The notes: generated by a model from the sequence alone, not told the origin. DNA of 64,000 nt from Candidatus Gastranaerophilales bacterium (GCA_944325635.1 CALVBD010000005.1:60388-124387), one strand, 5' to 3'; shown: positions 5,930 to 59,653, counted from the stretch's first letter. Program-made: numbers and translations.

Positions 5930-5990
5930 CGTCAAGCACGGTCAGAAGCTTGCGGCACGTACAAAAGTCCGCTAAATACGGAGAAAAACA

Positions 5991-41180: not shown

Positions 41181-41224
41181 ACTATTTGATTTTAAGCTGT
41201 TTTAGTCGTATAATAAACAGGAGT

Positions 41225-44200: not shown

Positions 44201-45685
44201 GTAAGCCCTGTAGAGATAAAAGCGGATGCCGTTCTCTCGCCGAAAAGCATCAAAATCAATAACTTTAAATACGACAAAATTATCACATCATTAAATAACA
44301 AAGAAAACCCTAACACCCAGCTTACGGCTAGCGGTTATGTTGAACAGCTCGGAGAAAATTACTTCAAATTTAAAAATCTCCGCATAACAACCCACAACCC
44401 GACGGACGCTAAAATTTTCAACATAATATTCAAAAAACCGCTTATGAAACAGGGTGTATTTACATCCGATATGATTATTAACGGAACATCTAAAGCCCCG
44501 AAAATATTAGGAAAACTTGATGTCACAAGCATTGATATGCCGTTTTTTGATGCGACAATCAAAGATATACATACAGATTTCAAAAAAGATATAGTAACAA
44601 TAAATGCACGCGGAAGCATTCTCAATAATGCAATAACTCTGGATGCGATTTTAAAAAACTCCTTCCCTGACCCGATTGTATTTAAGGATATCAAACTCCA
44701 CTTTATAGATTTGAATTTAAATAAAATCACCGGCTCGCTGCAGGATTACGACGCTGATATTTATAAACAGCAGATAGCAACACCATACCAGCTTCAGCCG
44801 ATTGACCCATCAATAATCCGCATAGAAAATTCGGAAGTTACTGCAGATAACATTCTATTAAAAGCACTTTCCGCCACAAACTTTAAAGCTAATCTCAAAA
44901 TGGGCGCTGATTCTGTCATAAATGTGACGAATTACGGCTTTGATATGGCGCAGGGGAAAGTGACGGGAGATTTAAAATACAACCTTAAGACAAGCGATTT
45001 TAAAATAAATTCGCACATAACAGATGCAAATGCTCAAATAATCTCGGAGTCACTGTTTGATTTAAAAGGCCAGCTATACGGAACAACAACAGGAGACTTA
45101 ACTCTCTACTGCAACGGGAAAACACAGGATTTATGCCTGAATACACTCGGCGGCAAAGGAAATTTTGAAGTTGCGCACGGCAGAATGCCGAAATTAGGGT
45201 CACTGGAATACCTTCTTAAAGCTGCAAACCTTGCAAAAAGCGGTCTTACAGGACTTTCTATCAACAGTATTATTGATATAATTACACCGCTGAAAACCGG
45301 TGAATTTGAAAGTATCAGCGGCAGTTATGAAATTAAAGACGGCATTGCATACGAAGTTAATGTATATTCAAAAGGAAAAGACCTCAACCTATACCTCACT
45401 GGCGCTTATAACGTCACAAATTCCAACGCTGATATGAAGGTATACGGAACCCTTTCTAACAACATTACAAACGTTCTAGGACGCCTTAAAAATGCTTCTT
45501 TGAATACGCTTTTAAATATGATACCATTATTAAACAAAAACGAAATTTCACCTGAACTTGAAGCAGAGTTAAAGAAAATTCCGAATTACGAAGTTTACAA
45601 TAACATATTCAGAATATTTGCCGTTGATATCGACGGTGACATCAATGGCATAAATTACGTAAAAAGCTTCAAGTGGGTAAAATAA
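41225..45685 (+). CDS. Giant envelope protein, AsmA/TamB-like
   Basis: About 1490 aa; a single N-terminal TM (IATISIISLIALYGLYY), then a long beta-rich Asn/Lys-rich body. Assignment rests on size, layout and diderm context only. Start uncertain (41186 TTG or 41225 ATG). Confidence 0.5.
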   Translation: MGKKTIATISIISLIALYGLYYRGIPAAINKPYFENFIERQIQKNSGLKIDFVNPEFKMGWLPAVWLKADEISVTNDDKSKPLKLENPALKLQLFPLLLKHAEVSVFNANNTTAKLSIDKRGQIFLGQYPLNFDKKSKITLNKIKINLNKYYITLNDNVLGKTVILDGKTFKLEDFEKDKRAKFSTKSSLIVDGKPSIINTSVDLRFPINKINEDQLLLNADIENLDLSLFKIYVKYFSKNRYTDLKGILNFHAKTDVTKEKHKNITADLTLDNFGLMKKDTAGSSFCNGRLEIKTTLNTLKNGIHLENLTLKAPKVDLAASGNITGLNKKFPYLDIQTTINPSRSENIIPLLPGEENLLPDFNFYLLKKHIFYSNIMGHINIKGIANNPELFGNVLITDGYLIKRIPDTTEGATVKLSMEKQMMHLDANVETAPNEGVDVTGDFKLFTNRRSDIHIKSTKNISLLKAYNVVMPLHNIIKFEIGPVPMMKVTGTGNIDLRISGTKIEPHAWGEMNFKDTNASFNDIHNLSVTGINAKLTFDDRLATFKSSKAFILGQPVTIEGTSSLSGDMDFTAKSKGLPTEHLLKVINTSPVLAELQEVVEPIKTISGKADLLLNLTGHMKPGVEPVFNENLFAKGTIDFHNNKGELKDIPAEISQLSGTVNFVNEDADFDMETLVEKSKVKFKGTVKNENINLTAYSNKFNAGDALRISSRMYSYIPYVKDSESINSSFTAFYQAKADKIIHYDKIIMNGKIYNNFGSGKPILVGNGEFNLKNNHLTVSPLKGTYKSNPYNLKVDVTGFLTDNFKINGYASMKNFNLAALNELGPIEEIFPEYKDQLKQFGRYEGKTNIAARINNNNLRVFSQLNDVSFVYLPKHLRIRIKDGHYLLNNDRLNLSRISGFVGRMPVFVNGKITNVFKNPDADLYINAKPTQEFFDQFFNNKAVYPIKLKGDVNCTAELNGTQDKLSTKVDLKLDESSSLYYMGATIGDMVSPVEIKADAVLSPKSIKINNFKYDKIITSLNNKENPNTQLTASGYVEQLGENYFKFKNLRITTHNPTDAKIFNIIFKKPLMKQGVFTSDMIINGTSKAPKILGKLDVTSIDMPFFDATIKDIHTDFKKDIVTINARGSILNNAITLDAILKNSFPDPIVFKDIKLHFIDLNLNKITGSLQDYDADIYKQQIATPYQLQPIDPSIIRIENSEVTADNILLKALSATNFKANLKMGADSVINVTNYGFDMAQGKVTGDLKYNLKTSDFKINSHITDANAQIISESLFDLKGQLYGTTTGDLTLYCNGKTQDLCLNTLGGKGNFEVAHGRMPKLGSLEYLLKAANLAKSGLTGLSINSIIDIITPLKTGEFESISGSYEIKDGIAYEVNVYSKGKDLNLYLTGAYNVTNSNADMKVYGTLSNNITNVLGRLKNASLNTLLNMIPLLNKNEISPELEAELKKIPNYEVYNNIFRIFAVDIDGDINGINYVKSFKWVK

Positions 45686-46177: not shown

Positions 46178-48271
46178 TTAACTTACAGGATAATTTTCAC
46201 CGATTGTATCAACAGCCTCAACCTTGATATCCGTAATCAATTCAGAATAAGAAATTACGACAATTGTCGGGATATGGCGTTCAAGAAGCTGATACAGAGG
46301 CAGTCGGATTCTTGGAGAACAAAGAATAACAGGCTGCTGCCCGCATGCCTGCTGGGCACGAACGATTGTTGTCGCTGCAGATTCAATTAACTCCTGAACT
46401 TGCATTGGATTTAACAGGAACATTGTACCAAGCTCAGTTCTCTGGCAGCTGTCATCAAGAATTTTTTCCCATTCAGGCGACAGCGTAAGTGCATAAAGAA
46501 CCTTATCATCACCCACGTTGGACAAACAAATTTGACGTCCTAATGCTGCACGCAAACGTTCCGACAGGATATCAGGTTCTTTAGAAAATCTTGCATAGTC
46601 GCAAAGTCTTTCAAATACAAATATAATATCCTTAATTGAAACCTTTTCGCGGATTAAGTTAACAAAAATCTTTCTCAAATCACTTGTAGAAATAATGGTC
46701 GGAACAAGGTCGTTAACAAGAGTAGGGTCTTGCGAGCGGACAAGTTCCATAAGTTTAAGTACATCGGTTTTTGTCATAACTTCATCAACGTGTTTTCTTA
46801 CGCATTCCTGAAGATGGGTAACGATTACATCAGTAGAATCAACCGCAGTAACAGAACGCGTTGCCTTGGCATCATCAAACGTAATCCAGTAAGCTTGAGT
46901 CTGATAAGTCGGGTCAATACCGATAATAGCATCTTGCGGAACATCTTTTCTCACGGCATCCCACTGATCCGCAATAACCATTAAACGACCCGGATATACA
47001 TATCCTGTCGCAACAGTGTTACCGCGGATGGAAATCATATATTCATTCGCATCCAAAGCAGATGAGTCCATAATTCTTATGTTAGGCAAAATGTACCCCA
47101 GTTCATCAGTAACTCTCTGACGTAAGGCTGCGATTTTTGCAAGTAATTGACCTTCCTGATCAGGGTCGGCAATTACAAGCAGGTTAGATCCTACCTGCAA
47201 ACTCAATACGTCAACCCCGAGTCGTTCGTACATTCTGTTAGGGTTAACAAGATCCTGCATATTCTGACGAACACTTTCCAATTGTCCCAACTGAGATTGA
47301 ACGTCAGCGTTAATAAGAGTTGAGAACCCTGCAATAGCAAGTCCTAAACCAAATAAGAAGAACGGCCAGAACGGCAGTCCGGTAAACGGAGGTCCGGTAA
47401 TTGCAAGAAGCCACAAGAAACCAGAAGCAAGGAACAAAGCATTCGGTTTACTTACAATCTGCCCTGTAACATCTGTACCTAATGAATTTGCTGCAGAAGA
47501 ACGGGTCATAAAAATACCTGCCGCAATTGACATCAAAAGTGACGGAACCTGCGAGGCAAGACCATCACCTATTGTCAGGATTGTATATTTTGAAACCGCA
47601 TCGGCAATAGGCATCTGGTTCATAAGACACCCGATACACAACCCGCCGATAATGTTAATCAATACAATAATAATACCAGCGATAGTATCCCCTTTTACGA
47701 ACTTCATCGCACCGTCCATACTACCGAAAAGGTTTGATTCTCGTTGTAAATCTTCACGCTTTTTGGTCGCTTCTTCAGGAGAGATTAAACCAGCGTTAAA
47801 ATCCGCGTCAATTGTCATTTGTTTACCGGGCATAGCATCCAATGCAAACCTTGCTGCAACTTCCGCGATACGTTCCGCACCTTTTGTGATTACCATAAAC
47901 TGTACAACCGTGATAATAAGGAAGATTACACCACCGACAATCATATTACCGCCAGTTACGAACGTTCCGAATGCGTGGATTACTTCTCCCGCCTCACCCT
48001 TTGATAGAATTAACCTTGTTGAAGCAATTGATAATACAAGACGGAACATTGTACCGATAAGAATAATTGACGGAAATGACGCGAGTTCAAGAGTTTTTCT
48101 CACATACAATGAAATCATCAGCAAAACAATTCCGAGTGCTATGTTCAAACTGATACAGACGTTAACAACCCAGTTCGGCAGCTCAACAAGCAAAAGCACG
48201 ATGAGCAGCAAGACGAATAACGCCATAAAAATTTCACTTAAACTATTGGAATTTCCGCCTTCCGCTGCCAT
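46178..48271 (-). CDS. flhA: Flagellar/type III export gate protein FlhA
   Basis: 697 aa; FHIPEP motifs (ITKGAERIAEVAARFALDAMPGKQMTIDAD, FGSMDGAMKFVKGD), eight-TM N-domain and a cytoplasmic C-domain. Confidence 0.95.
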   Translation of the reverse strand: MAAEGGNSNSLSEIFMALFVLLLIVLLLVELPNWVVNVCISLNIALGIVLLMISLYVRKTLELASFPSIILIGTMFRLVLSIASTRLILSKGEAGEVIHAFGTFVTGGNMIVGGVIFLIITVVQFMVITKGAERIAEVAARFALDAMPGKQMTIDADFNAGLISPEEATKKREDLQRESNLFGSMDGAMKFVKGDTIAGIIIVLINIIGGLCIGCLMNQMPIADAVSKYTILTIGDGLASQVPSLLMSIAAGIFMTRSSAANSLGTDVTGQIVSKPNALFLASGFLWLLAITGPPFTGLPFWPFFLFGLGLAIAGFSTLINADVQSQLGQLESVRQNMQDLVNPNRMYERLGVDVLSLQVGSNLLVIADPDQEGQLLAKIAALRQRVTDELGYILPNIRIMDSSALDANEYMISIRGNTVATGYVYPGRLMVIADQWDAVRKDVPQDAIIGIDPTYQTQAYWITFDDAKATRSVTAVDSTDVIVTHLQECVRKHVDEVMTKTDVLKLMELVRSQDPTLVNDLVPTIISTSDLRKIFVNLIREKVSIKDIIFVFERLCDYARFSKEPDILSERLRAALGRQICLSNVGDDKVLYALTLSPEWEKILDDSCQRTELGTMFLLNPMQVQELIESAATTIVRAQQACGQQPVILCSPRIRLPLYQLLERHIPTIVVISYSELITDIKVEAVDTIGENYPVS

Positions 48272-49083
48272 TAAATTTCTCTTAACGCCTCACTGATTAC
48301 GGACAATTGGGTTTCAATTGTCGCATCTACTACCCCGTTTGTTGTTGTAACCATACAGCCGCCTTCCGTAATATTTTCATCCGAAAGTACAACAACTTTT
48401 GTATCCATCCCCGCAAGATTTAAAATCTCCGGTACAGATTGTTTTGTAATATCGACCTGTGTCGGATTAACCCTTAGGACAACCTTAGTTTCCTCTTTTG
48501 ATAATCCTTTCATAACTTCTACTATAGTATTCATAAGCACCTGAGGATCTTCAGATACTTCTTTTTTAATTATTTTCTTGGCAATATCAACACTTATTTC
48601 CAAAATATCAGGTGCTATTTGCTCATAAACATCTTGCGGTGCATTCATAAAAGCTGTCAGTGTCTGTTTTAAAGCATCAATATCAGCTTTTGCCTGCTCT
48701 AATCCCGCCTGATAACCTTCTTTTGAAGCAGACGCCCTTATTGTATCAGCTTCTTCTCTTGCACGAGAAATTAAATTTCTGTCATCAACCCTTCTAAACC
48801 CGCGACGTCTGTCGCCTCTGCGTCTTTCCTGTCTTTGTGAAAAATCAATATTATCTAGACTAAATAAATCTATATCGTCAGGATCTTCAACTTCTTCCGG
48901 CTCTTGTTGAACGGGCACATCTTCTTGCGGAGTATTATTCTCATCAGACTCGGCATTTTCCGTAATATCAAGAGAATCCGTACCAAAAATTTCCTCAGCC
49001 TCGTTATTGTCCTGCTCGACAACCTGAGACTCAGGAGAAGGTTCCTCTTTCCCGCGTCTTAATGTTTTCTTTTTAATAATCAT
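48271..49083 (-). CDS. fliH: FliH-like flagellar assembly protein
   Basis: 270 aa; acidic disordered N-terminus, central EGYQAGLEQAKADI helix, C-terminal GGCMVTTTNGVVDATIETQL; stop overlaps the flhA start. Confidence 0.7.
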   Translation of the reverse strand: MIIKKKTLRRGKEEPSPESQVVEQDNNEAEEIFGTDSLDITENAESDENNTPQEDVPVQQEPEEVEDPDDIDLFSLDNIDFSQRQERRRGDRRRGFRRVDDRNLISRAREEADTIRASASKEGYQAGLEQAKADIDALKQTLTAFMNAPQDVYEQIAPDILEISVDIAKKIIKKEVSEDPQVLMNTIVEVMKGLSKEETKVVLRVNPTQVDITKQSVPEILNLAGMDTKVVVLSDENITEGGCMVTTTNGVVDATIETQLSVISEALREI

Positions 49084-49095
49084 GATTTAATATTA

Positions 49096-50193
49096 TTATA
49101 CACCATTCTCCAGGTGAGTGGCAATAACATCAGCAACACGGGGCGGGATTGCATAATATTCATTTTCAAGAGCATTAAAAACAAATCTTCTGACCTTCTG
49201 TCTTTCCAACTGCAGAGCCAGCTCTAGCTTATTTTTATCATAATTTTCAGCAGCTTCTTTTACTCTTTCGACCAGTTTATTTTTGTTAATTTCTGTTGCG
49301 CCGGGAAGGTTTTCCGCAATTTCATCCAGACATTTCATTGTTAAAGTCGGGTCAACTTTATCTTCTAATCCGTCGACATACATATATTTAATAACAGTTC
49401 CGGCGGTCTCCTGATCAAAACGTTCAAGAATTGACTGAACTTTTTCTTCATCGACACGTTTCAATAAAAGTGCGACCGTTACAAGTTTCAGAAGTTTCGG
49501 AGGCGCATAAGGACTCTTTTGCGGAGTAGAAACATTTCCGCCGCCTTGCACTGCCGGAACTCCACCCTGTTGCGGAGCTTGCTGTGGAGCCGTTGGCATT
49601 TGCTGCGCTGCCTGTTGCTGTTGTTGAACTGACTGTTGCACAGCCTGCTGTGCCGCTTGCTGTGCGGCCTGAGCCTGCTCTATTTCTCCGGTTTCCTGCA
49701 TCTGCTGCATCATCTGGTCTATATTTGACTGCTTTGAGGCTTTTTCCATCAACGCTTCGTCAATCTGCCCTTTTGCTTTTAATTCCGCTATAGAATCCAG
49801 GTATGTTTTCTTTACGTGATGCTCAATAAGCTGTAAAATCTGATCCTGAGGCAAACCTTGCTTAAATGTCTGTTTTGCTATCTCAAATATGGTGAATGCA
49901 ATTTTCTGCATTACACCATCCCAGTGCATTTGCGGAATGCCCGAACGAATAAGGTCAACGGACTTATGGAAAGACCATTCCGCAATTATCTGTGTAATCA
50001 TTGCAGCCTGATCAGCTGTAAAATTTAATTCAGTATCATTATATAAGGCCTCACCGGCAAGCATTGAAAAATTTAACAATGTGTTTGCTACATAGGCTTT
50101 TTGATTCTGGTCAAAATCCTGAGGCACAAGTTCTTGTGCTTGTTGCGTCAAATTCTGTGCAAATGCTTTATAATCAAATCCTTTTATTGCCAT
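49096..50193 (-). CDS. Hypothetical protein with a C-terminal FliG-N/MgtE-N-like domain, in the fliG position
   Basis: 365 aa: unrelated N-terminal ~150 aa, a Gln/Ala-rich linker (AQAAQQAAQQAVQQSVQQQQQAAQQ), and a last ~130 aa resembling the FliG N-domain (KLVTVALLLKRVDEEKVQSILERFDQETAGTVIKYM). No FliG middle or C-terminal motifs seen. Confidence 0.45.
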   Translation of the reverse strand: MAIKGFDYKAFAQNLTQQAQELVPQDFDQNQKAYVANTLLNFSMLAGEALYNDTELNFTADQAAMITQIIAEWSFHKSVDLIRSGIPQMHWDGVMQKIAFTIFEIAKQTFKQGLPQDQILQLIEHHVKKTYLDSIAELKAKGQIDEALMEKASKQSNIDQMMQQMQETGEIEQAQAAQQAAQQAVQQSVQQQQQAAQQMPTAPQQAPQQGGVPAVQGGGNVSTPQKSPYAPPKLLKLVTVALLLKRVDEEKVQSILERFDQETAGTVIKYMYVDGLEDKVDPTLTMKCLDEIAENLPGATEINKNKLVERVKEAAENYDKNKLELALQLERQKVRRFVFNALENEYYAIPPRVADVIATHLENGV

Positions 50194-50249
50194 TTTTTAC
50201 CATTGCTTACGACAACTGTCAAATCGCCTTTTTGTATATATTTTTTTAA

Positions 50250-50279
50250 CTTCACTATTTTTGCCGTTGCGGCTTTATT
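50250..50279. repeat. 30-nt direct repeat, copy 1 (cttcactatttttgccgttgcggctttatt)
   Basis: Matches 50402-50431 at 28 of 30 positions; lies in the fliF/FliG-N-like spacer. Confidence 0.8.
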
Positions 50280-50401
50280 TGGTTCATGCACTCGGGTATT
50301 TTTATCGAGCTGCAAGAGACTTAATCTGTCGTGTCCCTCGCACATATTTTGCTTTACGATTTTCGTCTTTGTCGTTTTCGCCTTTCCTATAATACGTTTT
50401 C

Positions 50402-50431
50402 CTTCACTACTTTTGCCGTTACGGCTTTATT
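50402..50431. repeat. 30-nt direct repeat, copy 2 (cttcactacttttgccgttacggctttatt)
   Basis: Matches 50250-50279 at 28 of 30 positions. Confidence 0.8.
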
Positions 50432-50484
50432 CGTTATTCAATTCAAAAATCTGTCATCCTGAACTCATTTCAGGCTCTCTAGCT

Positions 50485-52155
50485 TTATGAGCCTTTTTCT
50501 ATCCAGCTCTTAATCTTGTCGCCTGCTTCTTCGCCGTCAGCATCTGAGAGATTCGCCGACATATTTTCAAGGGTGGATATCATTTCTTCCGGTGAGCGGA
50601 TTGCGATGTATTCTCTATTTTGCTGTTCAAGCAGTCCTGCTGCAAGTTCGTTTTGTCTGTCAGAGAGTTGTGCTGCTCTCATATTGACATCACTTAATTC
50701 TCTATCCTGTTCAGCCTCTTTCTGTCTCAAACGTTCAACTTCCATTGCGTTTGCTTCCTGAATTTGACGAACCTTATCCGATACAGCTTTGAATACTACA
50801 ACCAGACCGACTGCACTCAGTGCAACCGCTAACCACCAAGGGTTACCGCTTTCATCAGGTTTCGGAAGGTTAACAGGTCTATCAGATGCAAGGTAAGGGT
50901 CTACTGAATCTGAGAACGCAATTGATACGTTTTCAGGGTTAACCTTCGGGCTTGCAGCTTTTGCAACAAGTGCTCTTAATTCTTCAACCGTCGTTTCTGC
51001 CGGAAGCGCACTCTTTTCCATCGTTACAGCTACAGAAATATCTTCTACCATACCAGGTTTCAAGTATTCATTCAACTGGGTTTTGCTGACGCCGTACTGG
51101 GTTTCCGTTGCAGAACGGGAATAACTTCTGTCCTGGCTTGAATCCATACCGCCGCCTGCGATACCGTTTGGAAGATAAACACTAACAGCATTAACATTTC
51201 TGTTACTGTCACGGGTCTGGTCGCCCAAACCTTCAGTAAAGGACTGTTCGTTCACCGATGTTTTTCTTTCAGGATCGTAATCTGTGCTGTATTTTTCAGC
51301 AGGAGCCTGACGAAGGAAGGTGCTTACGGTTGCAACGTAATTCCCTTTACCTATTAATCTGTCCAACTGCTGCTGAACTTTTTGCTGCATATATTTATCG
51401 TTTTCTTCAATTCTGGCAAGCATTTCATCATTAGCATTCATAATGCTGTGATAAACATTACCGTTGGTGTCGGAAATTGAAATATTTTCAGCTTCTAATC
51501 CCGAAACACTTCCTAAAAGGAGGTTCGTAATAGCTTTAACTTTCAACTGATCCAACTTTGTGCCGACAGGTACTACAAGCTGAACGGTTGCCGTTACAGG
51601 TTTTTGCATTGATGTAAACATTGTCTGTTCCGGAATTGAAATAAATACAGAGGCATTATCAACCCCGTCAATTCTCTTAATTAATCTTGAAAGTTCACCG
51701 TTGATTGCGCGGGTTAATCTTATTTTTTTATCTTCTTTAGTAGAAGTAAAGTCGCCTTTATCAAAAACTTCCAAGCCGACATTTTGATCCATCAAACCGC
51801 TCTGAACAATTGCCATAATAGCTCTGTCGCGCTGTTCTGTTGTACACTTTTTCTGACCTGTTGTACAGTCGCCTTTTTTCAAATAAATATTAGATTTCGT
51901 ACCATCAAGACCACGGCTTGCGGCAATACCTTCTTTAGCCAATAATGATTGAATTTCAAGTGCTTTTCCCAAATTATCTGTTGTAAGAAGGTTCACATCC
52001 TCTTTTAAGGGCTGTTCGCTTAACTCGGTACCATTCTTTGAACTGTTTCCGGCGCTTACAATAGAAAGTGTCAGGATTAGCGCAACCACAATTACAACAC
52101 CGCCTATAATCCCGTATAGTAAAGGTTTATTTTCTAATATCTTTTGAAAGTCCAT
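50485..52155 (-). CDS. fliF: Flagellar M-ring protein FliF
   Basis: 556 aa; N-terminal TM (LLYGIIGGVVIVVALIL), YscJ/FliF-type ring domains, a second TM (WWLAVALSAVGLVVVF) and a charged C-terminal tail. Confidence 0.9.
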   Translation of the reverse strand: MDFQKILENKPLLYGIIGGVVIVVALILTLSIVSAGNSSKNGTELSEQPLKEDVNLLTTDNLGKALEIQSLLAKEGIAASRGLDGTKSNIYLKKGDCTTGQKKCTTEQRDRAIMAIVQSGLMDQNVGLEVFDKGDFTSTKEDKKIRLTRAINGELSRLIKRIDGVDNASVFISIPEQTMFTSMQKPVTATVQLVVPVGTKLDQLKVKAITNLLLGSVSGLEAENISISDTNGNVYHSIMNANDEMLARIEENDKYMQQKVQQQLDRLIGKGNYVATVSTFLRQAPAEKYSTDYDPERKTSVNEQSFTEGLGDQTRDSNRNVNAVSVYLPNGIAGGGMDSSQDRSYSRSATETQYGVSKTQLNEYLKPGMVEDISVAVTMEKSALPAETTVEELRALVAKAASPKVNPENVSIAFSDSVDPYLASDRPVNLPKPDESGNPWWLAVALSAVGLVVVFKAVSDKVRQIQEANAMEVERLRQKEAEQDRELSDVNMRAAQLSDRQNELAAGLLEQQNREYIAIRSPEEMISTLENMSANLSDADGEEAGDKIKSWIEKGS

Positions 52156-52197
52156 CTGTTCCCCGGTCTGGTTTATTACAAATTACTACAATATATT

Positions 52198-52536
52198 CTA
52201 CACCTGAATTTGCATAACTTTATCATACGCCTGAATGACTTTTCCGACCGCCTGTGTTGCAATGTTAACACTGACTTCTGATTTTGCCATTGCAGTCATA
52301 ACATCGTGAATATCAATGTTGGTATTTCCCGACATTACGTCTTTTAACAAATTATCCGGAGCATTTAATTCCGTATTGAAATTCTCAACAAGCCCTGATA
52401 GCACAGATTGAAAATTTCCCGTTGCCGGAGTTTCCATTCTCTGCATTCTGGCTGACGGCATTCCGTATACTCCTGAATCAAGTTTTGTGTGCTGAATTCT
52501 GTCCGGTAAATTATAGCTCGGATAAAAACTACTCAT
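52198..52536 (-). CDS. fliE: Flagellar hook-basal body complex protein FliE
   Basis: 112 aa; SD aggagg; C-terminal FliE-like segment IDIHDVMTAMAKSEVSVNIATQAVGKVIQAYDKVMQIQV. Confidence 0.85.
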   Translation of the reverse strand: MSSFYPSYNLPDRIQHTKLDSGVYGMPSARMQRMETPATGNFQSVLSGLVENFNTELNAPDNLLKDVMSGNTNIDIHDVMTAMAKSEVSVNIATQAVGKVIQAYDKVMQIQV

Positions 52537-54343: not shown

Positions 54344-54973
54344 ATGGCTAGTAACAGAATAACAGAAGGCGTAGGCAAAAAAATCGTTGAAGCACTTAAA
54401 CATCAATCTGATATTGAAATTAATCCGGTTCACGAAGAAGATAATTCTTTTTCAACTCCGGTTTATGAGTCTCCGGAACCTGAAGTTATTCAGCCGCAAA
54501 ACAATAATATGTTTGCCAATAATAATTTTGAAACTCCTGTAGAACCTAAAATTGACCAGCCACAGGCTTCTTTTACGTTTACAAATAATCAAAACATCAA
54601 CGAAAATTTTAATACCAATATGATGAACTTTAAACCTAAAGAGCCAATCCCGCCTGTTGAAGATTTTGAATTACCTCCAAATGTTGCGGTTTTAAAACAG
54701 CTTATTAATAAGCTTCCGTCTGGTGTCTCCAAACAAACCGGGGCACAGATTATTAAACAAACCATGGAAGCGCTCGGAATTTCTATGACAGGAGTTCTCC
54801 AGGAAGCCCAACAGGTTCAGGAAAATCTTAACCAATCAGTAAGAGACTGTCAGACAAGCATTCTGGAATACAAAAAACAGATTTCCGTTCTTGAAGCACA
54901 AGCGCAGAAATACCAAAGACAATTCGCTGTAGTGAATGATATCATTAGCCTGTTTATCCAAACTAACCACTAA
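54344..54973 (+). CDS. Hypothetical protein (Asn/Pro/Gln-rich middle, coiled-coil C-terminus)
   Basis: 209-aa ORF with SD gaggga; no recognisable motif. Confidence 0.55.
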   Translation: MASNRITEGVGKKIVEALKHQSDIEINPVHEEDNSFSTPVYESPEPEVIQPQNNNMFANNNFETPVEPKIDQPQASFTFTNNQNINENFNTNMMNFKPKEPIPPVEDFELPPNVAVLKQLINKLPSGVSKQTGAQIIKQTMEALGISMTGVLQEAQQVQENLNQSVRDCQTSILEYKKQISVLEAQAQKYQRQFAVVNDIISLFIQTNH

Positions 54974-54981
54974 TTTATTTA

Positions 54982-55771
54982 TTAATGGCAGCTATGCTTT
55001 CCGTTAATAGCAACCTTATCGGGACATCTCATATAATCAAGGTTTTCGTATAATAATATCCAATCGACAGCACTACAGATACATCCCGGTGCAGTATATC
55101 CACGCAGATAATGTTCAATCTGTGTAGCCTGTTCACAAACACTATAAGTTAATCTATTTTCGCCCAATCTAAATAAAAATATATTCTGATTCAACACATT
55201 TTTAGGCTTTCTGTCGGTTTTTATAATAATTGTGTTACGGTATCCCATAAATTCAATTCCGTCAGCGGCAATAGAGTAAGCGCCTCCGCCATCTCCTAAT
55301 GCACCGAGATTAGCACCTTGTAAACTGTAATAATGTGTCGTTTTTCCATCTTCAGAGGTATCTCCTTTGTTAAAGGAAGAAAATGTGCACTCACTAGTAC
55401 TTAAACCATTTTTAACATAGCACTCACTGACATTTTTTATGTATGGAAGCATATAACTCAAATAACAACGAGCCTGTTTAGAACCATCAGATGTCACATC
55501 AAAACTATTACAATCCCAATCCTCTTTCTGCATTCCCCCGTTTGCCTCAATTGCCAATGTATAAGCTTGACTAAAAATACTATAAGCTTTCTTTACCTTG
55601 GTAACAGTAACTTTATCCTGCTGTTTTTGAATTATTGCCGGCAATGTCATCGACGCCACAATTCCAATAATTCCTAACGTTATTAATACTTCTGCAAGAG
55701 TAAATGCTGGGTTTTGCTTTAAATTACGAAGCCCCCCCCCCCGTAAACACAGTCATAGCAAGGTTTTTCAT
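54982..55771 (-). CDS. Type IV pilin-like protein, frame interrupted at a poly-G(11) tract after codon 9
   Basis: SD gaggag N9 ATG at 55771, then MKNLAMTVFT and G11 (C11 on the + strand, 55732-55742). The downstream frame encodes ..LKQNPAFTLAEVLITLGIIGIVASMTLPAIIQ plus a pilin-like body (NQNIFLFRL). The leader is nearly identical to that of 34706-35462. Confidence 0.8.
55732..55742. repeat. Homopolymeric C11/G11 tract inside the pilin-like gene leader
   Basis: Counted directly: 11 consecutive C on the + strand. Confidence 0.95.
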
Positions 55772-55856
55772 ACTTTTCTTCTCCTCTGTTCAGCTATATA
55801 TTCATTATAACATACGGCTTAGGAAATTACAATTCACTAAGCCGTATTTATTAAAT

Positions 55857-56183
55857 CTATTGATATGAAAATGCCTGCTGAATATTCTTGTCAACCCTTG
55901 CCCTGCAGGAATTATACTCAGTTTCAACCATCTTAAGTTTTGTCTGGTATTGAAGCATTTGCTGTTCGAGTTTCTGGTCTAACAGTTTTAACTTGGCCTG
56001 CCGCTGATTAAGTGTCTTTACGATAGGGTTATCTGAATCATAATCGCTTCCAACCCTCATTAAATCGTTGCAAGAGGACATCAATTCCGAACGCGTCTGA
56101 GTTATCAACTGGATTTTGTATTCCAAATCCATTCTTACGTTGTTCAGATACTGCATTCTGATTGTATCAACTATGAGACCCAT
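55857..56183 (-). CDS. Hypothetical helical-hairpin protein, short paralog of the 596-aa protein
   Basis: 108 aa; SD gaagga. The N-terminal (MQYLNNVRMDLEYKIQLITQTRSELMSSCNDLM) and C-terminal (LKLLDQKLEQQ...ARVDKNIQQAF) segments align with the termini of 57649..59439. Confidence 0.65.
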   Translation of the reverse strand: MGLIVDTIRMQYLNNVRMDLEYKIQLITQTRSELMSSCNDLMRVGSDYDSDNPIVKTLNQRQAKLKLLDQKLEQQMLQYQTKLKMVETEYNSCRARVDKNIQQAFSYQ

Positions 56184-56195
56184 TTTCTTTTCCTT

Positions 56196-56468
56196 CTATC
56201 TTGTTTCGTTAAGGTTATTCCCTTTCAAGAAGCTGTGTTGATTATTTTCTGCAATCAACTGTTCCATTTTTTGAAACTGGTGTCTGTGATAATTCAATCT
56301 GTACTGAGCCATCTTCAATTTCTTTTTCATGGTCAAGAAATCGCGTAAACCTTCTACAATCGAATTTATCAGAGCTTTGATAGGGCTTTTCCTTATCAGA
56401 AAGTTCCTTGAATATATCAGGAAATCTATTATCCTTTTTATATTCATTACTAAAGTATCTCGAAGCAT
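56196..56468 (-). CDS. Hypothetical small protein
   Basis: 90-aa ORF with a strong SD (aaggag N4 ATG); no recognisable motif. Confidence 0.5.
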   Translation of the reverse strand: MLRDTLVMNIKRIIDFLIYSRNFLIRKSPIKALINSIVEGLRDFLTMKKKLKMAQYRLNYHRHQFQKMEQLIAENNQHSFLKGNNLNETR

Positions 56469-56569
56469 TGTTCTCCTTACACTTTAGTTCTACATGTATA
56501 TAAAAACACTCAGCACAGATTTATTGCCTGTTTTGTAAAGTTTTTTAACATGTCTTAACCAAAGTTTGA

Positions 56570-56755
56570 TTATCTGTTTACTTTTGATGTATCAGCACTC
56601 GAAAATGAGGTCTGTTCATATTCATTTTTATTTAACGGAAAATTCGTCCGAAACTTTAATGCAGAAAGACTATGCGAAAATAATCCGCAATAAAATTTTA
56701 CAATTCTTTCTGCCACTTTCAATATAATATTCTCAGTTTGTATATTTTTTCTCAT
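56570..56755 (-). CDS. Hypothetical small protein
   Basis: 61-aa ORF starting 3 nt after the upstream stop; no SD; weak support. Confidence 0.3.
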   Translation of the reverse strand: MRKNIQTENIILKVAERIVKFYCGLFSHSLSALKFRTNFPLNKNEYEQTSFSSADTSKVNR

Positions 56756-56758
56756 AGT

Positions 56759-57577
56759 CTATAAGTTCTGAATAGCTTTACTATCGCCGTCGATTGATTC
56801 TTTCAGCATCTTTTTAACAACATCGCCCTGCGTATCAAGCATCTTACATACAGTTTCAATGTTTCTAACCTTGTTGGAAAGTATTGTATCGGCATTTGCC
56901 GTAATATTACCTGTAACATTCTGATAAGCGGCAAGAGCAGCAGAAGATGTACCTTGCATTAAGTTTGCCATAACAATTGCAGGTAAACCATATTCACCCA
57001 AATAAGGGGCAGCCGCCTGCATAATACCGCCCCATCCGGAAATTACACTCGCTACAGGGAGAACAATATTACGTCCAAGCCAGCCATAACCGTTAGCAGA
57101 ACCGACGCCATAAGCGGCAGCACTTGCGACATCAGCAATTCCGCCAAGACTTGAAGCAAACCCTGTTGCAACTCCGCCTGAACTTGTTCCCCAGCCGGTA
57201 ATTGAAGCTGCCCCGCCAGTTGCAGTTCCGCCTAAGCCCCAGGATACAGGAGCCGCTCCGCCAGGGAAACCTGAATAGTTATAAAGTGAATCTATACCGT
57301 ATGAAGAACCTCCTGTAAATGGTGAATAATAAGAAGTACCTGCGACGTTCATTGATTCAGAGGCACCGAATACAGTTGCAAATGATGACGGAGCCAACAG
57401 ACTTGCAATTCGATACAAGAAACTTCCGGTCATTTCAAAACCTGTACCAGATCCTGTACCCGATACAGTAATATCGCGTAATTTATCATAAGTTTCAAAT
57501 AACTGGGCTTTTGCGTCTCCGCTTGCGGAACCGAATTTATTTGCGATTACCAGATAACTGTCATTTTTATAAGCCAT
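56759..57577 (-). CDS. Hypothetical Gly/Ser/Ala-rich protein
   Basis: 272 aa; SD aagagg. Charged helical termini flank a ~150-aa G/S/A/T-rich hydrophobic core with many small-xxx-small spacings (GWGTSSGGVATGFASSLGGIADVASAAAYGVGSANGYGW). Confidence 0.65.
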   Translation of the reverse strand: MAYKNDSYLVIANKFGSASGDAKAQLFETYDKLRDITVSGTGSGTGFEMTGSFLYRIASLLAPSSFATVFGASESMNVAGTSYYSPFTGGSSYGIDSLYNYSGFPGGAAPVSWGLGGTATGGAASITGWGTSSGGVATGFASSLGGIADVASAAAYGVGSANGYGWLGRNIVLPVASVISGWGGIMQAAAPYLGEYGLPAIVMANLMQGTSSAALAAYQNVTGNITANADTILSNKVRNIETVCKMLDTQGDVVKKMLKESIDGDSKAIQNL

Positions 57578-57648
57578 TTGTACCTCTTAGTTTTCTTTTT
57601 TAACCTGCCGCAATACAAAATCTGAAAACAATCAGTGCTTTAATTGGA

Positions 57649-59439
57649 TTATTCAAAAGTTTTGAATGTAGATTCAATGTTCTTATCAATAACTTTCTTG
57701 ACTGCTTCCATTTCAGTTTGCAGCGCTTCCTGTTCTGTATCAAGCTGACGTAGTCTCAATTCAAGAGTACGGTCTTCCTGTTGAATTCTTTCTGTTCTTG
57801 CGTTAATATCCTGAATTGCTTTTTCGTAAACCTGCATATCATAGTTATACTGGTTCATTGCATCCTGATAAGCGTCCTGATCAGTTTCGGTTTCAGTATT
57901 CAGATAGTACGTAACCGAAGAATCCTGATAACGGATTGTTTGAGGACGACCTTGCTCATCAAGGTCTACCATTGCCTTTTCAGTTCTTTCAATTTTTTCT
58001 TCTACATTTTTGGCAACATAGTAGGTTAATTTATCTTGATTTTCTGTTGGCAAAGATTGATCAGGACCGCTGATTGCAGAACTTGTCAAATCTTTTGCAC
58101 AGGCAAATCTTGTCTCACCCTGCCATTCCCAAGTATAAATATCTTCAGGATCTGCAAGTGCAAAATCTGAATCCGGCCAATCTTTAAGAATTTGTTCATA
58201 TGCTGTTTTCATTTCAGGATCTGTCGGGTCATATTTTGTGAGTTCACAGTTTCCAACATAGGTCGGAACACCGGATTCTACATAATAATCATACGGATCA
58301 CCTGCAGTTTCATCTGCCAGAGCTGAAAGTGATGTAAAGTGCATTACTCCGTCTTCATCTGTATAACAGCCTAAATCATCGAAATCTTTGCTGATTGAAG
58401 GATAATCCTCAACCAATTTATCATAAACCTTTTTCTGTTCAAGGTTAGTCGGATCATACTTGCTGACCTTATTACCATTGACAGTATAAGTCAGATTACC
58501 GGTAGGTTCTGTTGTCACAATATCTGTACGCGCAGTCGTCTGTTCTGTAATTGTATCAGTATTAGGATCAATATATCTGTCTTTTATATTACCTGTACCC
58601 TGTAATTCTGTCTGTGAGACAAAGTGAAGGTTACCGTCTGCGTCTGTGTATGTCATTGCATCAGCTTCTGTCATGTCAGGATATTGTGCAGCTAATCTAT
58701 CATAAGCCGCTTTTTGTGTAGGATCCGCAGCATCATAGGCGTTTACATTAAAGCCGTTAACGGTGTATGCTCCTGCACCGGTATCCACAACATTAGCCCT
58801 GTCAACGGTTGCTTCAGAAGCCGTACCAGTCTGCATAAATCTGTCTTTTACATCACCGGTTCCATCCAATTCAGTTCTTGATACGAAGTGAAGATTTCCA
58901 TCTGCGTCAGTATAAGTCATCATATCATCTTCCTGCATATCAGGATATTGAACTGAAAGCTGGTCAAACACATTTTTCTGATTTGCATCAGCCGGATCGT
59001 AAGTCGTTACATTATAGCCGTTAACCGTAAATGTAGGCTGTTCTACAGTATCAATTTCATCTCTTGAAATAGAATCTTTTGTAGAAACATCATCTTGAAC
59101 AACCTGCGGATTAGACAATTTATTCTGAACACCTTGGTAAATATCTGCGAAATGAAAGTGAGTAACGAGATAATTATAACCATCAGGATCATTTTGGAGT
59201 TCTGTCATGCTGGAAATTTCTTCAGCCTCAGTTCCATCGGTATAAGTATATTTCAATTCTGTATAATCCTGAGTACTAGGGGCAGTCGGTACTTCAAGCG
59301 CTAATAAATCATTAAACGTATTTGCACTCTGATTTGCCAGTGCAGTACGTGCCTGGTTAATCTGTTGTCCTTCATACTCTACGTTAGTTTTTCTTGCGGT
59401 CAGTGCCAAATATCTCGCCTGTGAAGCTGCCATTCCCAT
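57649..59439 (-). CDS. Hypothetical protein with conserved helical termini and four internal tandem repeats
   Basis: 596 aa; SD gaggagag. N-terminal helix AASQARYLALTARKTNVEYEGQQINQARTAL, C-terminal coiled coil ...LRQLDTEQEALQTEMEAVKKVIDKNIESTF. Four ~75-93-aa repeats (YTVNG..V..YD...K..YD.L...YPD...TYTDADGNLHF). Confidence 0.8.
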   Translation of the reverse strand: MGMAASQARYLALTARKTNVEYEGQQINQARTALANQSANTFNDLLALEVPTAPSTQDYTELKYTYTDGTEAEEISSMTELQNDPDGYNYLVTHFHFADIYQGVQNKLSNPQVVQDDVSTKDSISRDEIDTVEQPTFTVNGYNVTTYDPADANQKNVFDQLSVQYPDMQEDDMMTYTDADGNLHFVSRTELDGTGDVKDRFMQTGTASEATVDRANVVDTGAGAYTVNGFNVNAYDAADPTQKAAYDRLAAQYPDMTEADAMTYTDADGNLHFVSQTELQGTGNIKDRYIDPNTDTITEQTTARTDIVTTEPTGNLTYTVNGNKVSKYDPTNLEQKKVYDKLVEDYPSISKDFDDLGCYTDEDGVMHFTSLSALADETAGDPYDYYVESGVPTYVGNCELTKYDPTDPEMKTAYEQILKDWPDSDFALADPEDIYTWEWQGETRFACAKDLTSSAISGPDQSLPTENQDKLTYYVAKNVEEKIERTEKAMVDLDEQGRPQTIRYQDSSVTYYLNTETETDQDAYQDAMNQYNYDMQVYEKAIQDINARTERIQQEDRTLELRLRQLDTEQEALQTEMEAVKKVIDKNIESTFKTFE

Positions 59440-59624
59440 AAGCTGCTCTCCTCTACATTGTCTAAATTGTCTACTACTACATTTCTTTTTTTAATTATGT
59501 TTTTCAAAAAGTCAACATAACTACAATAAATTATACGGCAATATGAAGAAATTTATACAGCATAATCCGTAAAAATCCTACAAATGAATTAGAAAATTTC
59601 AAAAATTCATTAATTCAACCGACA

Positions 59625-59653
59625 AAAAAGACCGCCCCACGAGCGGTCTTTTT
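59625..59653 (-). terminator. Rho-independent terminator after rpsA
   Basis: Stem aaaaagaccgc/gcggtcttttt; on the minus strand it is followed by a T-run. Confidence 0.85.

Follow-up and report, generated by a model that had tools for sequence, protein, structure and literature searches.

Stalk-and-head proteins of an unnamed superfamily and a headless paralog at a Gastranaerophilales locus tied by promoters and neighbours to the flagellar gene programme

Within the window, a 64,000-nucleotide stretch of DNA from a Candidatus Gastranaerophilales bacterium close to Candidatus Scatousia, lies a locus whose genes all occupy the minus strand at the coordinates first assigned to them: those for a 596-aa protein (57649..59439), a 272-aa Gly/Ala/Ser-rich protein (56759..57577), a 90-aa basic protein (56196..56468, pI 10.4) and a 108-aa protein (55857..56183) that starts 12 nt past the stop codon of the 90-aa gene, with a 61-aa ORF (56570..56755, minus strand) between the 272-aa and 90-aa genes. 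The initial annotation placed the start of the locus just past the rpsA terminator, and the terminator scan agrees, reading a hairpin at 59625..59653 (minus strand) with an 11-bp stem and then a T run, which forms the upstream limit of the locus. It also credited the genes with Shine-Dalgarno sequences, four of which we read upstream of locus genes (GAGGAGAG, AAGAGGT, AAGGAG and GAAGGAAAAG); at the 596-aa gene a strong Shine-Dalgarno sequence is accompanied by a putative promoter. A flagellar cluster said to lie 3 kb away is indeed present, with fliE, fliF, fliH and flhA starting 3.3 kb from the locus in the window, and of the compared loci 28 have fliE and fliF ~4-9 kb from where the 596-like gene starts. 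Synteny in related genomes, proposed as a check, is evident from the gene order 596-like, 272, 90, 108, which is kept in 54 of 80 species loci.

Other elements of that description stood only in part. The neighbouring pilin-like gene does contain a homopolymeric G tract, but it is not a syntenic partner of the locus, as a similar gene occurs in just 12 of 82 loci and in varying positions. Of the two small ORFs, the 90-aa gene holds up, with ~80% identity in 54 loci, whereas the 61-aa ORF is found by tblastn in only five close relatives (5/82 loci, 46-73% identity), is without a gene call in relatives, spans the sigma-28-like motif described below and is probably not a gene. Elsewhere in the window, genes for a TolC-like outer-membrane channel, an HlyD-like adaptor and a MacB-type transporter lie at 3285-7945, and a 1,499-aa ORF has zero Pfam matches.

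The 596-aa protein is acidic (pI 4.1) and abundant in Thr, Asp and Asn, and its 2,621 close homologs include none that is named and none with a Pfam domain. Among its closer relatives, which we call subfamily A (alignment A1), residues 1-57 and ~520-596 are near-invariant although overall identity is just 53-60%, and the middle region varies in both sequence and module number. In the AlphaFold model (pLDDT 84), the N-terminal stalk helix (residues 2-47; 59299..59436, minus strand) pairs with the distal, broadly conserved part (~residues 545-593) of the C-terminal helix (residues 521-595; 57655..57879, minus strand) to form the stalk, while the proximal part of the C-terminal helix packs on the beta head and is conserved periodically on one face. 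Conserved positions, many of them polar, lie on every face of the N-terminal helix and of the distal C-terminal helix, as expected from packing or partner contacts around the whole stalk. Because identical residues share a codon only 54% of the time, so that synonymous sites have diverged, we attribute the constancy of the termini to selection at the protein level and not to recent recombination. The four tandem repeats originally noticed in this protein are recovered as four alpha/beta modules of ~75-90 aa each in the head (residues ~136-470; 58030..59034, minus strand), with pairwise z-scores of 8-44 at the protein level and four alpha/beta units in the model; they were not found as tandem repeats in the DNA, and gaps in alignment A1 show that subfamily-A relatives carry one to four such modules.

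The locus proteins are members of a large, unnamed and hitherto undescribed superfamily. The superfamily of the 596-aa protein comprises at least 3,370 clusters at 50% identity, with lengths of 209-1,074 aa, and in the wider family all 150 of the 150 matches listed align essentially end to end. Labelled genome records that carry it all belong to gut Melainabacteria of the order Gastranaerophilales; some genomes hold two or more paralogs (2-3 per genome seen), and the extra stand-alone paralogs sit among housekeeping genes, away from flagellar genes. The minimal member, of 209 aa, is modelled with high confidence (pLDDT 96.3, pTM 0.72) as a helix (residues 3-47), a seven-strand beta head and a second helix (residues 134-208), and the models together describe an antiparallel two-helix stalk topped by a small beta head that bears hypervariable inserts. 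The terminal helices span ~47 almost invariant residues at the N-terminus and ~75 at the C-terminus, and the inserted domains, themselves hypervariable, range in size from zero to ~900 residues. The flagellin-like plan that had been described for the long protein, its termini conserved and the insert between them variable, is upheld by both alignments (A1 and A4) and both models; as modelled, the superfamily is flagellin-like in its build, with constant end helices and a hypervariable middle, but different in its fold.

Sequence and structure searches were consistent with two further early claims, that the long protein has no flagellin, hook-associated-protein (HAP) or pilin signature and no signal peptide. 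Pfam and NCBIfam searches with the 596-aa protein returned no flagellin, HAP or pilin match at E up to 1, and its maximum 19-residue Kyte-Doolittle value of 0.33 indicates no hydrophobic segment, which by this measure of hydropathy argues against a Sec signal peptide. A match to a characterised family, sought by profiles, structure prediction and Foldseek as had been advised, did not emerge: the superfamily has no significant match in Pfam, NCBIfam, PDB or Foldseek, profiles A1, A2 and A4 drew a blank in sequence searches of the PDB, and the best Foldseek look-alikes were non-significant (E 0.013 or worse, TM 0.2-0.33), with flagellar filament entries appearing only at E of 3e-3 or worse (3.5e-3 or worse against the PDB) and TM of ~0.1-0.2. 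Identity with flagellin (Flagellin_N PF00669, Flagellin_C PF00700) was considered and rejected for want of a Pfam or NCBIfam match and on an hhalign probability of 0.3%, and identity with the FliD cap (FliD_N PF02465, FliD_C PF07195) for want of a match and because a separate canonical FliD is encoded on a contig of the sister subfamily B.

The 108-aa protein (minus strand) is a "headless" paralog that retains the stalk helices only. It had been proposed to share both termini with the 596-aa protein and to consist essentially of the two helices joined, and several comparisons agree on both points. BLASTP aligns the C-termini at E=1e-5 and the N-termini at 3e-3, and an HMM built from the 108-aa family's alignment (A2) scores the 596-aa protein at 25.1 bits through two co-linear, end-anchored stretches, HMM positions 1-38 falling on residues 1-38 and positions 43-106 on residues 530-593, with no other stretch matched. 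Shuffled 596-aa termini score a mean of -3 and a maximum of 8.1 bits against the same HMM, none of 500 reaching 25.1. When the superfamily HMM (A4) is instead run against the window proteins, the 108-aa protein reaches 17.6 bits (E=1.5e-7 for that single comparison), and no other, coiled-coil ones included, exceeds 1.2 bits. The 108-aa HMM likewise finds the two termini of subfamily B; hhalign alone gives a weak result (probability 28%). We consider the 108-aa and 596-aa proteins confirmed as true paralogs. Neither the 108-aa nor the 90-aa protein has a Pfam, NCBIfam or PDB sequence match to FliS, FlgN or FliT, and the 90-aa protein has no family match in Pfam or NCBIfam and no PDB match.

The gene for the 272-aa protein (minus strand) directly follows the 596-like gene in all 54 full-set loci and is probably co-transcribed with it. 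Its product is 80-95% identical in most of the 59 loci carrying the gene and 60-66% in one distant clade, a conservation equal to that of ribosomal protein S1; helical-looking N- and C-terminal segments are conserved and the Gly-rich middle varies. It has no clear transmembrane segment (maximum 19-residue Kyte-Doolittle value 1.49), no match in Pfam, NCBIfam, PDB or PADLOC, and no relationship to the stalk-and-head superfamily by profile search; glycine-zipper-like stretches occur in it. A hairpin of ~100 aa encoded beside a larger paralog, next to a Gly-rich protein with such stretches, might suggest a WXG100/ESX- or LXG-type secretion-substrate or toxin pair in which the 272-aa protein is a membrane-active effector. 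We regard this as extremely unlikely, since the WXG motif is lacking, Pfam gives no match to WXG100 or LXG, no FtsK/SpoIIIE-type ATPase lies in the neighbourhood (none of the 20 window ORFs scanned has the domain), the variable part sits mid-protein and not in a C-terminal toxin domain, and the 272-aa protein is conserved like ribosomal protein S1, unlike a polymorphic toxin.

The genes had been taken for a single operon, but they probably form two transcription units, 596+272 and 90+108, because a sigma-28-type promoter lies before the 90/108 pair. This FliA-type motif, TAAAGTTT-N11-TCCGTTAA, occupies 56632..56658 (minus strand), 163 nt upstream of the 90-aa gene, and was one of 2 matches, against 0.18 expected, in a pattern search of the window that used the sigma-28 consensus quoted in PMC12784957. 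A sigma-28 motif occurs in the same intergenic position between the 272 and 90 genes in 34 of 55 loci, among them that of the window, compared with a background of 0.038 per kb, and the element would work as a sigma-28 promoter for the 90/108 pair, making the 90-aa gene the first of a putative sigma-28 unit. The probable 3' end of that unit is a stem-loop directly 3' of the 108-aa gene (55812..55847, minus strand; RNA fold -19 kcal/mol, z = -5.4), after which the T run is weak. Upstream of the 596-aa gene, in turn, is a sigma-70-like element (59488..59515, minus strand; ~48 nt from the ATG) composed of TTGACT (59515-59510), a 16-nt spacer and TAAAAA (59493-59488), the -10 element fitting consensus at just 4 of 6 positions. 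The pattern TTGAC[AT]-N15-18-TAnA[AT][AT] precedes 40 of 79 subfamily-A genes and none of the 64 from subfamily B, and the element would serve as the promoter of the 596-aa gene, whose signals point to very high expression. The sigma-28 motif is absent upstream of this gene and from the 83 other subfamily-A upstream regions scanned.

Canonical sigma-28 promoter motifs are a feature of subfamily B, where 72 of 80 loci have TAAAG(T/A)TT-N11-12-GCCG(A/T)(A/T)A(A/T) at -61 to -75 relative to the start codon; six of the remaining eight offer <100 nt of upstream sequence. As a positive control, this motif also stands before a bona fide FliD gene on a contig of subfamily B. One such contig encodes a canonical 584-aa FliD in which both domains are present (L152:288-2042), true flagellin genes adjoin subfamily-B genes in at least three lineages, and at one locus (L143) an A-like gene that is followed by a 272-like gene has a subfamily-B gene 1.5 kb upstream of it. 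Canonical FliC and FliD already exist in these organisms (our contigs; PMC3787301). As far as promoters and neighbours can indicate, this evidence ties the superfamily to the flagellar gene programme.

How close that tie is can be read in several ways. Sigma-28 promoters and fliC/fliD neighbours, together with the same terminal-helix plan around a variable middle, might mean that these are extremely diverged true homologs of an axial protein (flagellin, FlgK, FlgL or FliD) that profiles have missed. This is very improbable given that canonical flagellins and FliD are easily detected on the same contigs, that alignment A4 compared by hhalign with the local canonical flagellins (A6) yields a probability of only 0.3%, that no Pfam or NCBIfam match appears even at E 1 and Foldseek and PDB sequence searches are negative, and that the 209-aa model has no D1 helical domain. 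The sigma-70-like and not sigma-28 promoter of the 596-aa gene, the stand-alone paralogs distant from flagellar genes, the TolC-like, HlyD-like and MacB-type genes at 3285-7945 of the window, and the very combination of a hypervariable head with an invariant anchoring stalk are what one might expect of a secreted or surface adhesin, coat or S-layer-like protein that leaves by a non-flagellar route or does not polymerise, the motility link being merely regulatory. We doubt this explanation, as the proteins have no Sec signal, their C-terminus is a long conserved helix and not an unstructured type I secretion signal, RTX repeats are lacking, no dedicated transporter syntenic with the locus was found among the compared loci, and it would not explain why the paralogs are under sigma-28 control and adjoin fliC and fliD.

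A role inside the cell must also be weighed, as sigma-28 regulons classically contain chemoreceptor and motor genes, and chemoreceptors join a conserved signalling hairpin to variable ligand-binding domains. By analogy, the proteins could be cytoplasmic parts of a flagellar/chemotaxis regulon, with the invariant stalk docking on a conserved partner in the cell, for instance the motor, switch complex, export gate or a signalling complex, and the variable head acting as a sensor or cargo-binding domain. The existence of several paralogs, each a constant module joined to a variable one, the lack of a signal peptide and the weak Foldseek resemblance to intracellular coiled-coil hairpins (V-ATPase subunit D and prefoldin, TM ~0.3) would all suit such a role. 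It seems unlikely to us nonetheless, because wholesale swapping of inserts of 0 to ~900 aa and an acidic, Thr/Asp/Asn-rich composition are typical of exposed secreted proteins, neither the 596-aa protein nor ten sampled superfamily members have a Pfam match to a sensor or MCP-signalling domain, merely 2-3 paralogs per genome were seen, and the signals indicate very high expression.

We tentatively favour, at a probability of roughly 45%, the explanation that the proteins are exported via the flagellar type III system and assemble through the stalk, the 108-aa protein being a chaperone, adaptor or cap. Under this model, the superfamily proteins would be part of the late flagellar programme and, signal-peptide-free like flagellin, FliD and hook-associated proteins, would leave through the flagellar type III export apparatus. 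Once exported, the invariant stalks may pack on each other or dock on some conserved surface of the flagellum or of a partner, leaving the variable heads exposed to the surroundings, where host immunity, phage or ligands would drive their diversification. Synthesis of the headless paralog would await active sigma-28; this small protein would then pair with the stalk helices of the long subunits, whether as a chaperone or pilot for export or as an adaptor or cap subunit, and its timing could make assembly wait until the hook-basal body is complete. For the 272-aa and 90-aa proteins, candidate roles are those of a structural partner that co-assembles and of a small chaperone or regulator. An export substrate or new polymer had been suggested before, and the sigma-28 promoters and flagellin/FliD neighbours add circumstantial support; a pI of 4.1, Thr/Asp/Asn richness and the lack of a hydrophobic segment, typical of secreted proteins, also favour export. 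Against it stand the absence of flagellin homology, of an axial-protein Pfam match and of a Foldseek match, a stalk that is just one helix pair, with no D1 domain of the flagellin type, the lack of a sigma-28 motif at the 596-aa gene, and the stand-alone paralogs among housekeeping genes. Moreover, with canonical FliC and FliD present no flagellar part is obviously missing, and sigma-28 regulons also include proteins that are not exported, such as chemoreceptors, motor proteins and autolysins.

Known systems offer partial parallels to this arrangement. V-ATPase subunit D, prefoldin and the Mtr4 arch likewise bear a small beta element on the tip of a two-helix stalk, and FliJ and the F1-gamma class are antiparallel coiled-coil hairpins akin to V-ATPase subunit D; the superfamily has no sequence kinship with subunit D, prefoldin or the Mtr4 arch, however, and none of these shows hypervariable inserts or multi-paralog expansion. 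Flagellin and the other axial proteins (FliC, FlgK, FlgL, FliD) come nearer in having end helices coiled together around a hypervariable, size-variable insert, no signal peptide and several paralogs per genome, and subfamily B and the 90/108 pair add sigma-28-type promoter motifs and genes near fliC, fliD and fliE-flhA. They differ in that the superfamily shares no sequence, profile or structural similarity with them, its stalk is one helix pair with a beta head and not flagellin's D0 plus helical D1, the promoter of the 596-aa gene is sigma-70-like, and canonical FliC and FliD are present besides. The part proposed for the 108-aa protein resembles that of CesA with the EspA filament and of the injectisome needle chaperones, in which a ~100-aa helical chaperone pairs with a coiled-coil subunit and keeps it soluble, although the organism has no injectisome and the small protein here is a paralog of its putative client. 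In Campylobacter jejuni, FlaC and FspA are reportedly non-filament proteins secreted through the flagellar apparatus, and FlaC is a short flagellin paralog that keeps the termini without the central domain. Although FlaC is a true flagellin homolog and the superfamily is not, and secretion here is putative, both cases feature extra flagellar-regulon proteins without a signal peptide, and in both a short paralog has dispensed with the middle, as the 108-aa protein has relative to the 596-aa protein.

The 596-aa gene (57649-59439), the 272-aa gene (56759-57577), the 90-aa gene (56196-56468) and the 108-aa gene (55857-56183) follow one another on the minus strand, after the rpsA terminator hairpin (59625-59653) and with valS and rpsA as upstream neighbours, and they form a conserved four-gene set. 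Our synteny scan, which took one genome per GTDB species, found a relative in at least 526 species. Among the best 80 loci, 54 retain the order 596-like, 272, 90, 108, with rpsA upstream in 43 and fliE/fliF downstream in 28, and all labelled records are Gastranaerophilales or Melainabacteria, bar apparent label errors. Identity across loci is 80-95% for the 272-aa protein in most cases (60-66% in one distant clade), matching rpsA and valS of the same contigs in conservation, about 80% for the 90-aa protein and 55-65% for the 108-aa protein. The closest database relatives of the locus (84-97% identity), from Candidatus Scatousia (one source) and from genome records labelled Gastranaerophilales or Melainabacteria, are 'hypothetical proteins', searches of Pfam, NCBIfam, PHROGs and PADLOC gave no meaningful match for any locus protein, and an Rfam scan of the locus revealed no known RNA element. 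A phage origin was rejected, with 0 relatives in 2.9 million viral contigs and 0 PHROG matches. Some genomes carry additional stand-alone paralogs amid housekeeping genes. Several genome records with a Melainabacteria-type locus (L005, L014, L017, L034, L051, L062 and L070) bear titles that include Brachyspira sp., Clostridium sp., Muribaculaceae and Heliobacteriaceae; these oddly labelled records are probably mislabelled MAGs.

The two small ORFs of the initial annotation fare differently: the 90-aa gene is part of the conserved set, while the 61-aa ORF (56570-56755, minus), present in only 5 loci, is probably spurious and was rejected as part of the system. The pilin-like gene downstream of the 108-aa gene (minus, start 55771) was likewise rejected: no more than 12 loci have one, its position varies between them, and synteny with the locus is not kept in relatives. 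This gene looks phase-variable and caught in its OFF state, in agreement with the earlier suggestion: a run of 11 G (55732-55742) just past codon 10 leads to a stop after 15 codons (MKNLAMTVFTGGGAS*), and 10 G would read into a prepilin-type N-terminus (...KQNPAFTLAEVLITLGIIGIVA). The 209-aa gene at 54344-54973 (plus), divergent in orientation, is a conserved neighbour in 40 of 82 loci, and its product has an N-terminal half rich in Asn, Gln and Pro and a C-terminal coiled coil with a weak match (E=0.09) to Pfam SPAM, the Salmonella surface presentation of antigen gene type M protein. The flagellar cluster (46178-52536; fliE, fliF, a fliG-position gene, fliH and flhA, with fliI/fliJ absent in between) starts 3.3 kb past the 108-aa gene, confirming the distance of about 3 kb first noted. 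Neither the fliG-position gene between fliF and fliH (49096-50193, minus, 365 aa) nor its homolog on a relative's contig, L001, has a Pfam match. Between a rubrerythrin gene and flhA lies a 1,499-aa ORF (41186-45685, plus) with no Pfam match at E<=1e-3; as this neighbour contains no ATPase domain, a type VII/WXG system was rejected, and we regard a WXG-like substrate or toxin pair as exceedingly improbable.

The 108-aa protein is a headless paralog of the 596-aa protein, which bears out the shared termini described previously. BLASTP aligns both ends of one with both ends of the other (E=1e-5 and 3e-3), and an HMM of the 108-aa family (profile A2) matches every tested 596-family member in two co-linear, end-anchored stretches, with HMM positions 1-38 on residues 1-38 and positions ~43-106 on residues 530-593 of the 596-aa protein. 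This HMM scores 25.1 bits on the 596-aa protein, compared with 3.5 bits on its reversed sequence and a mean of -3 (maximum 8.1) on shuffled termini, of which 0 of 500 scored as high; it also matches both termini of subfamily B, a sister of the 596-like subfamily A. Reciprocally, the HMM of the wider superfamily (A4) gives 17.6 bits on the 108-aa protein and at most 1.2 on other proteins of the window, coiled-coil ones included. Taken by itself, hhalign is weak for this relationship (probability 28%). The four tandem repeats reported for the 596-aa protein are significant at the protein level (z-scores 8-44), and relatives carry one to four such modules in the alignment. The 272-aa protein, whose N- and C-terminal segments are conserved and whose Gly-rich middle varies, is unrelated to the superfamily by the same superfamily HMM.

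These termini define a large and new superfamily of proteins with an antiparallel two-helix stalk and a small beta head with hypervariable inserts. When 1.84 billion cluster representatives were searched exhaustively with a profile built from the termini, at least 3,370 matched at E<=1e-3, 2,698 at 1e-10 and 514 at 1e-30, counted as clusters at 50% identity; the proteins are 209 to 1,074 aa long, and practically every listed match spans from residue 1 to the last residue. Ten sampled members had no Pfam domain, no name and mutually unrelated middles, and for the distant members cluster look-up gave neither names nor taxonomy. In an alignment of 30 homologs of the 596-aa protein, residues 1-57 and ~520-596 are near-invariant, with overall identity down to 53%. 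Since identical amino acids are encoded by identical codons just 54% of the time, this terminal constancy reflects purifying selection on the protein. The conserved residues, many of them polar, lie all around both the N-terminal helix and the distal part of the C-terminal one, whose head-proximal part alone shows one-face periodicity.

Structure prediction places helices at residues 2-47 and 521-595 of the 596-aa protein, enclosing a beta core (60-133 and 471-519) and four alpha/beta modules (mean pLDDT 84, pTM 0.37). Because this floppy multi-domain model compromised a Foldseek search against the PDB, which returned nothing at E<=1e-3, we modelled a minimal 209-aa member from a 70-sequence alignment; its predicted helices (3-47 and 134-208) and seven-strand head were obtained with high confidence (pLDDT 96.3, pTM 0.72), and Foldseek found no significant match to it in the PDB or BFVD. 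The best E-values were 3.5e-3 (596-aa) and 1.3e-2 (209-aa), with TM at most 0.33, and the nearest topologies, all non-significant, were coiled-coil hairpins (V-ATPase subunit D, prefoldin and the Mtr4 arch). Sequence searches of the PDB with single proteins and with profiles A1 (596-like homologs), A2 and A4 were empty. The predicted fold thus appears to be new as far as Foldseek can tell, and the profile and structure searches called for by the initial annotation matched the shared termini to no characterised family. The curated families, solved structures and literature searched contain no description of this family, including in a literature search on the N-terminal motif and flagella in Gastranaerophilales/Vampirovibrionia.

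Promoter motifs and gene neighbourhoods tie part of the superfamily to late flagellar genes. Subfamily B came to light through a second, more divergent gene in one Melainabacteria MAG, which starts MGMAASQARLLTITAR and has a perfect TAAAGTTT-N11-GCCGATAA in front. A metagenome scan yielded 467 subfamily-B relatives, mostly 350-420 aa, ending in ...ETERxALxTEYDSVKKVIxDNIERTFGIFS. A sigma-28 motif, for which the FliA consensus is TCTAAAG at -35 and GCCGATAA at -10 (PMC12784957), lies at -61 to -75 in 72 of 80 subfamily-B loci retrieved, and six of the eight loci that lack it have less than 100 nt of upstream sequence. The motif also precedes a bona fide FliD gene (FliD_N and FliD_C) on a subfamily-B contig, in at least three lineages subfamily-B genes have canonical flagellin genes (Flagellin_N and Flagellin_C) next to them, and locus L143 has an A-like gene, with a 272-like gene behind it, 1.5 kb downstream of a subfamily-B gene. 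On one 1.2-Mb metagenome contig, a canonical flagellin of giant size (1,312 aa; L139:1966-5904), its termini typical of flagellins, stands directly upstream of a subfamily-B gene. A word-indexed protein search with the 42-aa subfamily-B N-terminus returned 20 matches, all N-terminal fragments of 45-74 aa, and full-length genes were recovered by the metagenome scan instead. Subfamily-B genes are frequently broken in public assemblies, as by a frameshift after codon 62 (L084:106-1291) or a break after codon 53 (L083:3064-4373), which could reflect assembly error in a variable region or genuine gene inactivation. Sigma-28-type motifs also occur upstream of a 306-322-aa family starting MTDxxDINxLTGKAxDIA, without a Pfam match and a few kb from stand-alone subfamily-A paralogs (L032:3292, L039:13560 on the minus strand, L040:4762 and L071:4029), and, on contig L068, before the gene of a 394-aa protein in which an SLT transglycosylase domain and weak EF-hand matches were found.

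Within the locus itself, the single operon first proposed is not borne out. Of 79 subfamily-A genes, 40 have a positionally conserved sigma-70-like promoter, TTGACT-N16-TA(T/A)AA(A/T), ahead of a strong Shine-Dalgarno sequence; this pattern occurs in 0 of 64 subfamily-B genes. In 34 of 55 loci a sigma-28 motif, whose background frequency is 0.038 per kb, lies between the 272- and 90-aa genes, at -150 to -200 relative to the 90-aa start; in the window it reads TAAAGTTT-N11-TCCGTTAA (56658-56632, minus) inside the spurious 61-aa ORF, and the pattern has 2 matches across the 64 kb against 0.18 expected. From these motifs, the locus is best read as two transcription units, 596+272 and 90+108, behind putative sigma-70-like and sigma-28-like promoters, respectively. 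A stable hairpin (-19 kcal/mol, z = -5.4) lies 3' of the 108-aa gene. No sigma-28 promoter was found upstream of the 596-aa gene, where a GCCGTATAA-like element some 95 nt before the gene was rejected for its wrong spacing, 12 nt after TAAA. The 5' leaders of subfamily A (for example window 59440-59487 and L001:9941-10000) contain in most relatives GTAAGGTAG or GTAGTAG between promoter and AGGAGAG Shine-Dalgarno; by analogy with flagellin mRNAs, we speculate that this could be a translational-regulator site, for example of the CsrA type.

We propose, at a probability of roughly 0.45, a joint reading in which stalk-and-head proteins would be exported via the flagellar type III apparatus, the invariant stalk would assemble or dock on a conserved surface so as to display the hypervariable heads, and the 108-aa paralog, timed by sigma-28, would serve as a chaperone, adaptor or cap by pairing with the helices of the stalk. 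This reading draws on the flagellin-like conservation pattern, conservation all around the stalk, a secreted-type composition without signal peptide (the 596-aa protein has a pI of 4.1, is Thr/Asp-rich and lacks a hydrophobic segment), the several paralogs per genome, and the regulon evidence of sigma-28 motifs and fliC/fliD neighbours. The initial suggestion of a type III substrate or new polymer gains circumstantial support from subfamily B and the 90+108 unit and loses at the 596-aa gene, whose own sigma-70-like promoter counts against the reading. A surface protein that uses another export route or is non-polymeric seems unlikely to us. Sigma-28 regulons include cytoplasmic proteins too, which also weighs against this reading, and a rather improbable alternative is a sensor or scaffold that serves the motility regulon in the cytoplasm. 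Further points against the export reading are the absence of a structural match and of flagellin homology, which was rejected at an hhalign probability of 0.3%; a hyper-diverged canonical axial protein is very unlikely. Canonical FliC and FliD are already there (PMC3787301, whose supplements hold no flagellar gene list), which also counts against the export reading and led us to reject a replacement for a missing FliD or flagellin.

A bolder extension of the export reading, which we consider possible but doubtful, is that gut Melainabacteria independently invented a second 'flagellin-like' building block: a new fold that would be exported by flagellar type III secretion and polymerise into or coat an extracellular structure (a new filament, flagellar outer layer or tip organelle) with hypervariable heads, with the headless paralog as dedicated chaperone or cap and the conserved Gly-rich protein as co-subunit.

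Common in human and animal guts but uncultured, Gastranaerophilales are the nearest relatives of Cyanobacteria that lack photosynthesis. The stalk-and-head family is very large and without annotation, has a confidently predicted new fold, and evolves in the pattern of an exposed, self-assembling structural protein. If its members are exported flagellar or surface components, they would lengthen the list of bacterial flagellar parts or export substrates, constitute for gut Melainabacteria a hypervariable antigen or adhesin beside TLR5-type flagellins, and exemplify convergent evolution towards the flagellin design. Heterologous hosts would allow the predictions of sigma-28 dependence, FlhA-dependent secretion and pairing of the 108-aa protein with the stalk to be examined without a culture of the organism. 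As the defining homology and fold tests for flagellin came out negative, we place these flagellar-regulon proteins outside the flagellin family: although the stalk-and-head has neither flagellin homology nor its fold, it follows the flagellin-like plan of conserved ends around a variable middle.
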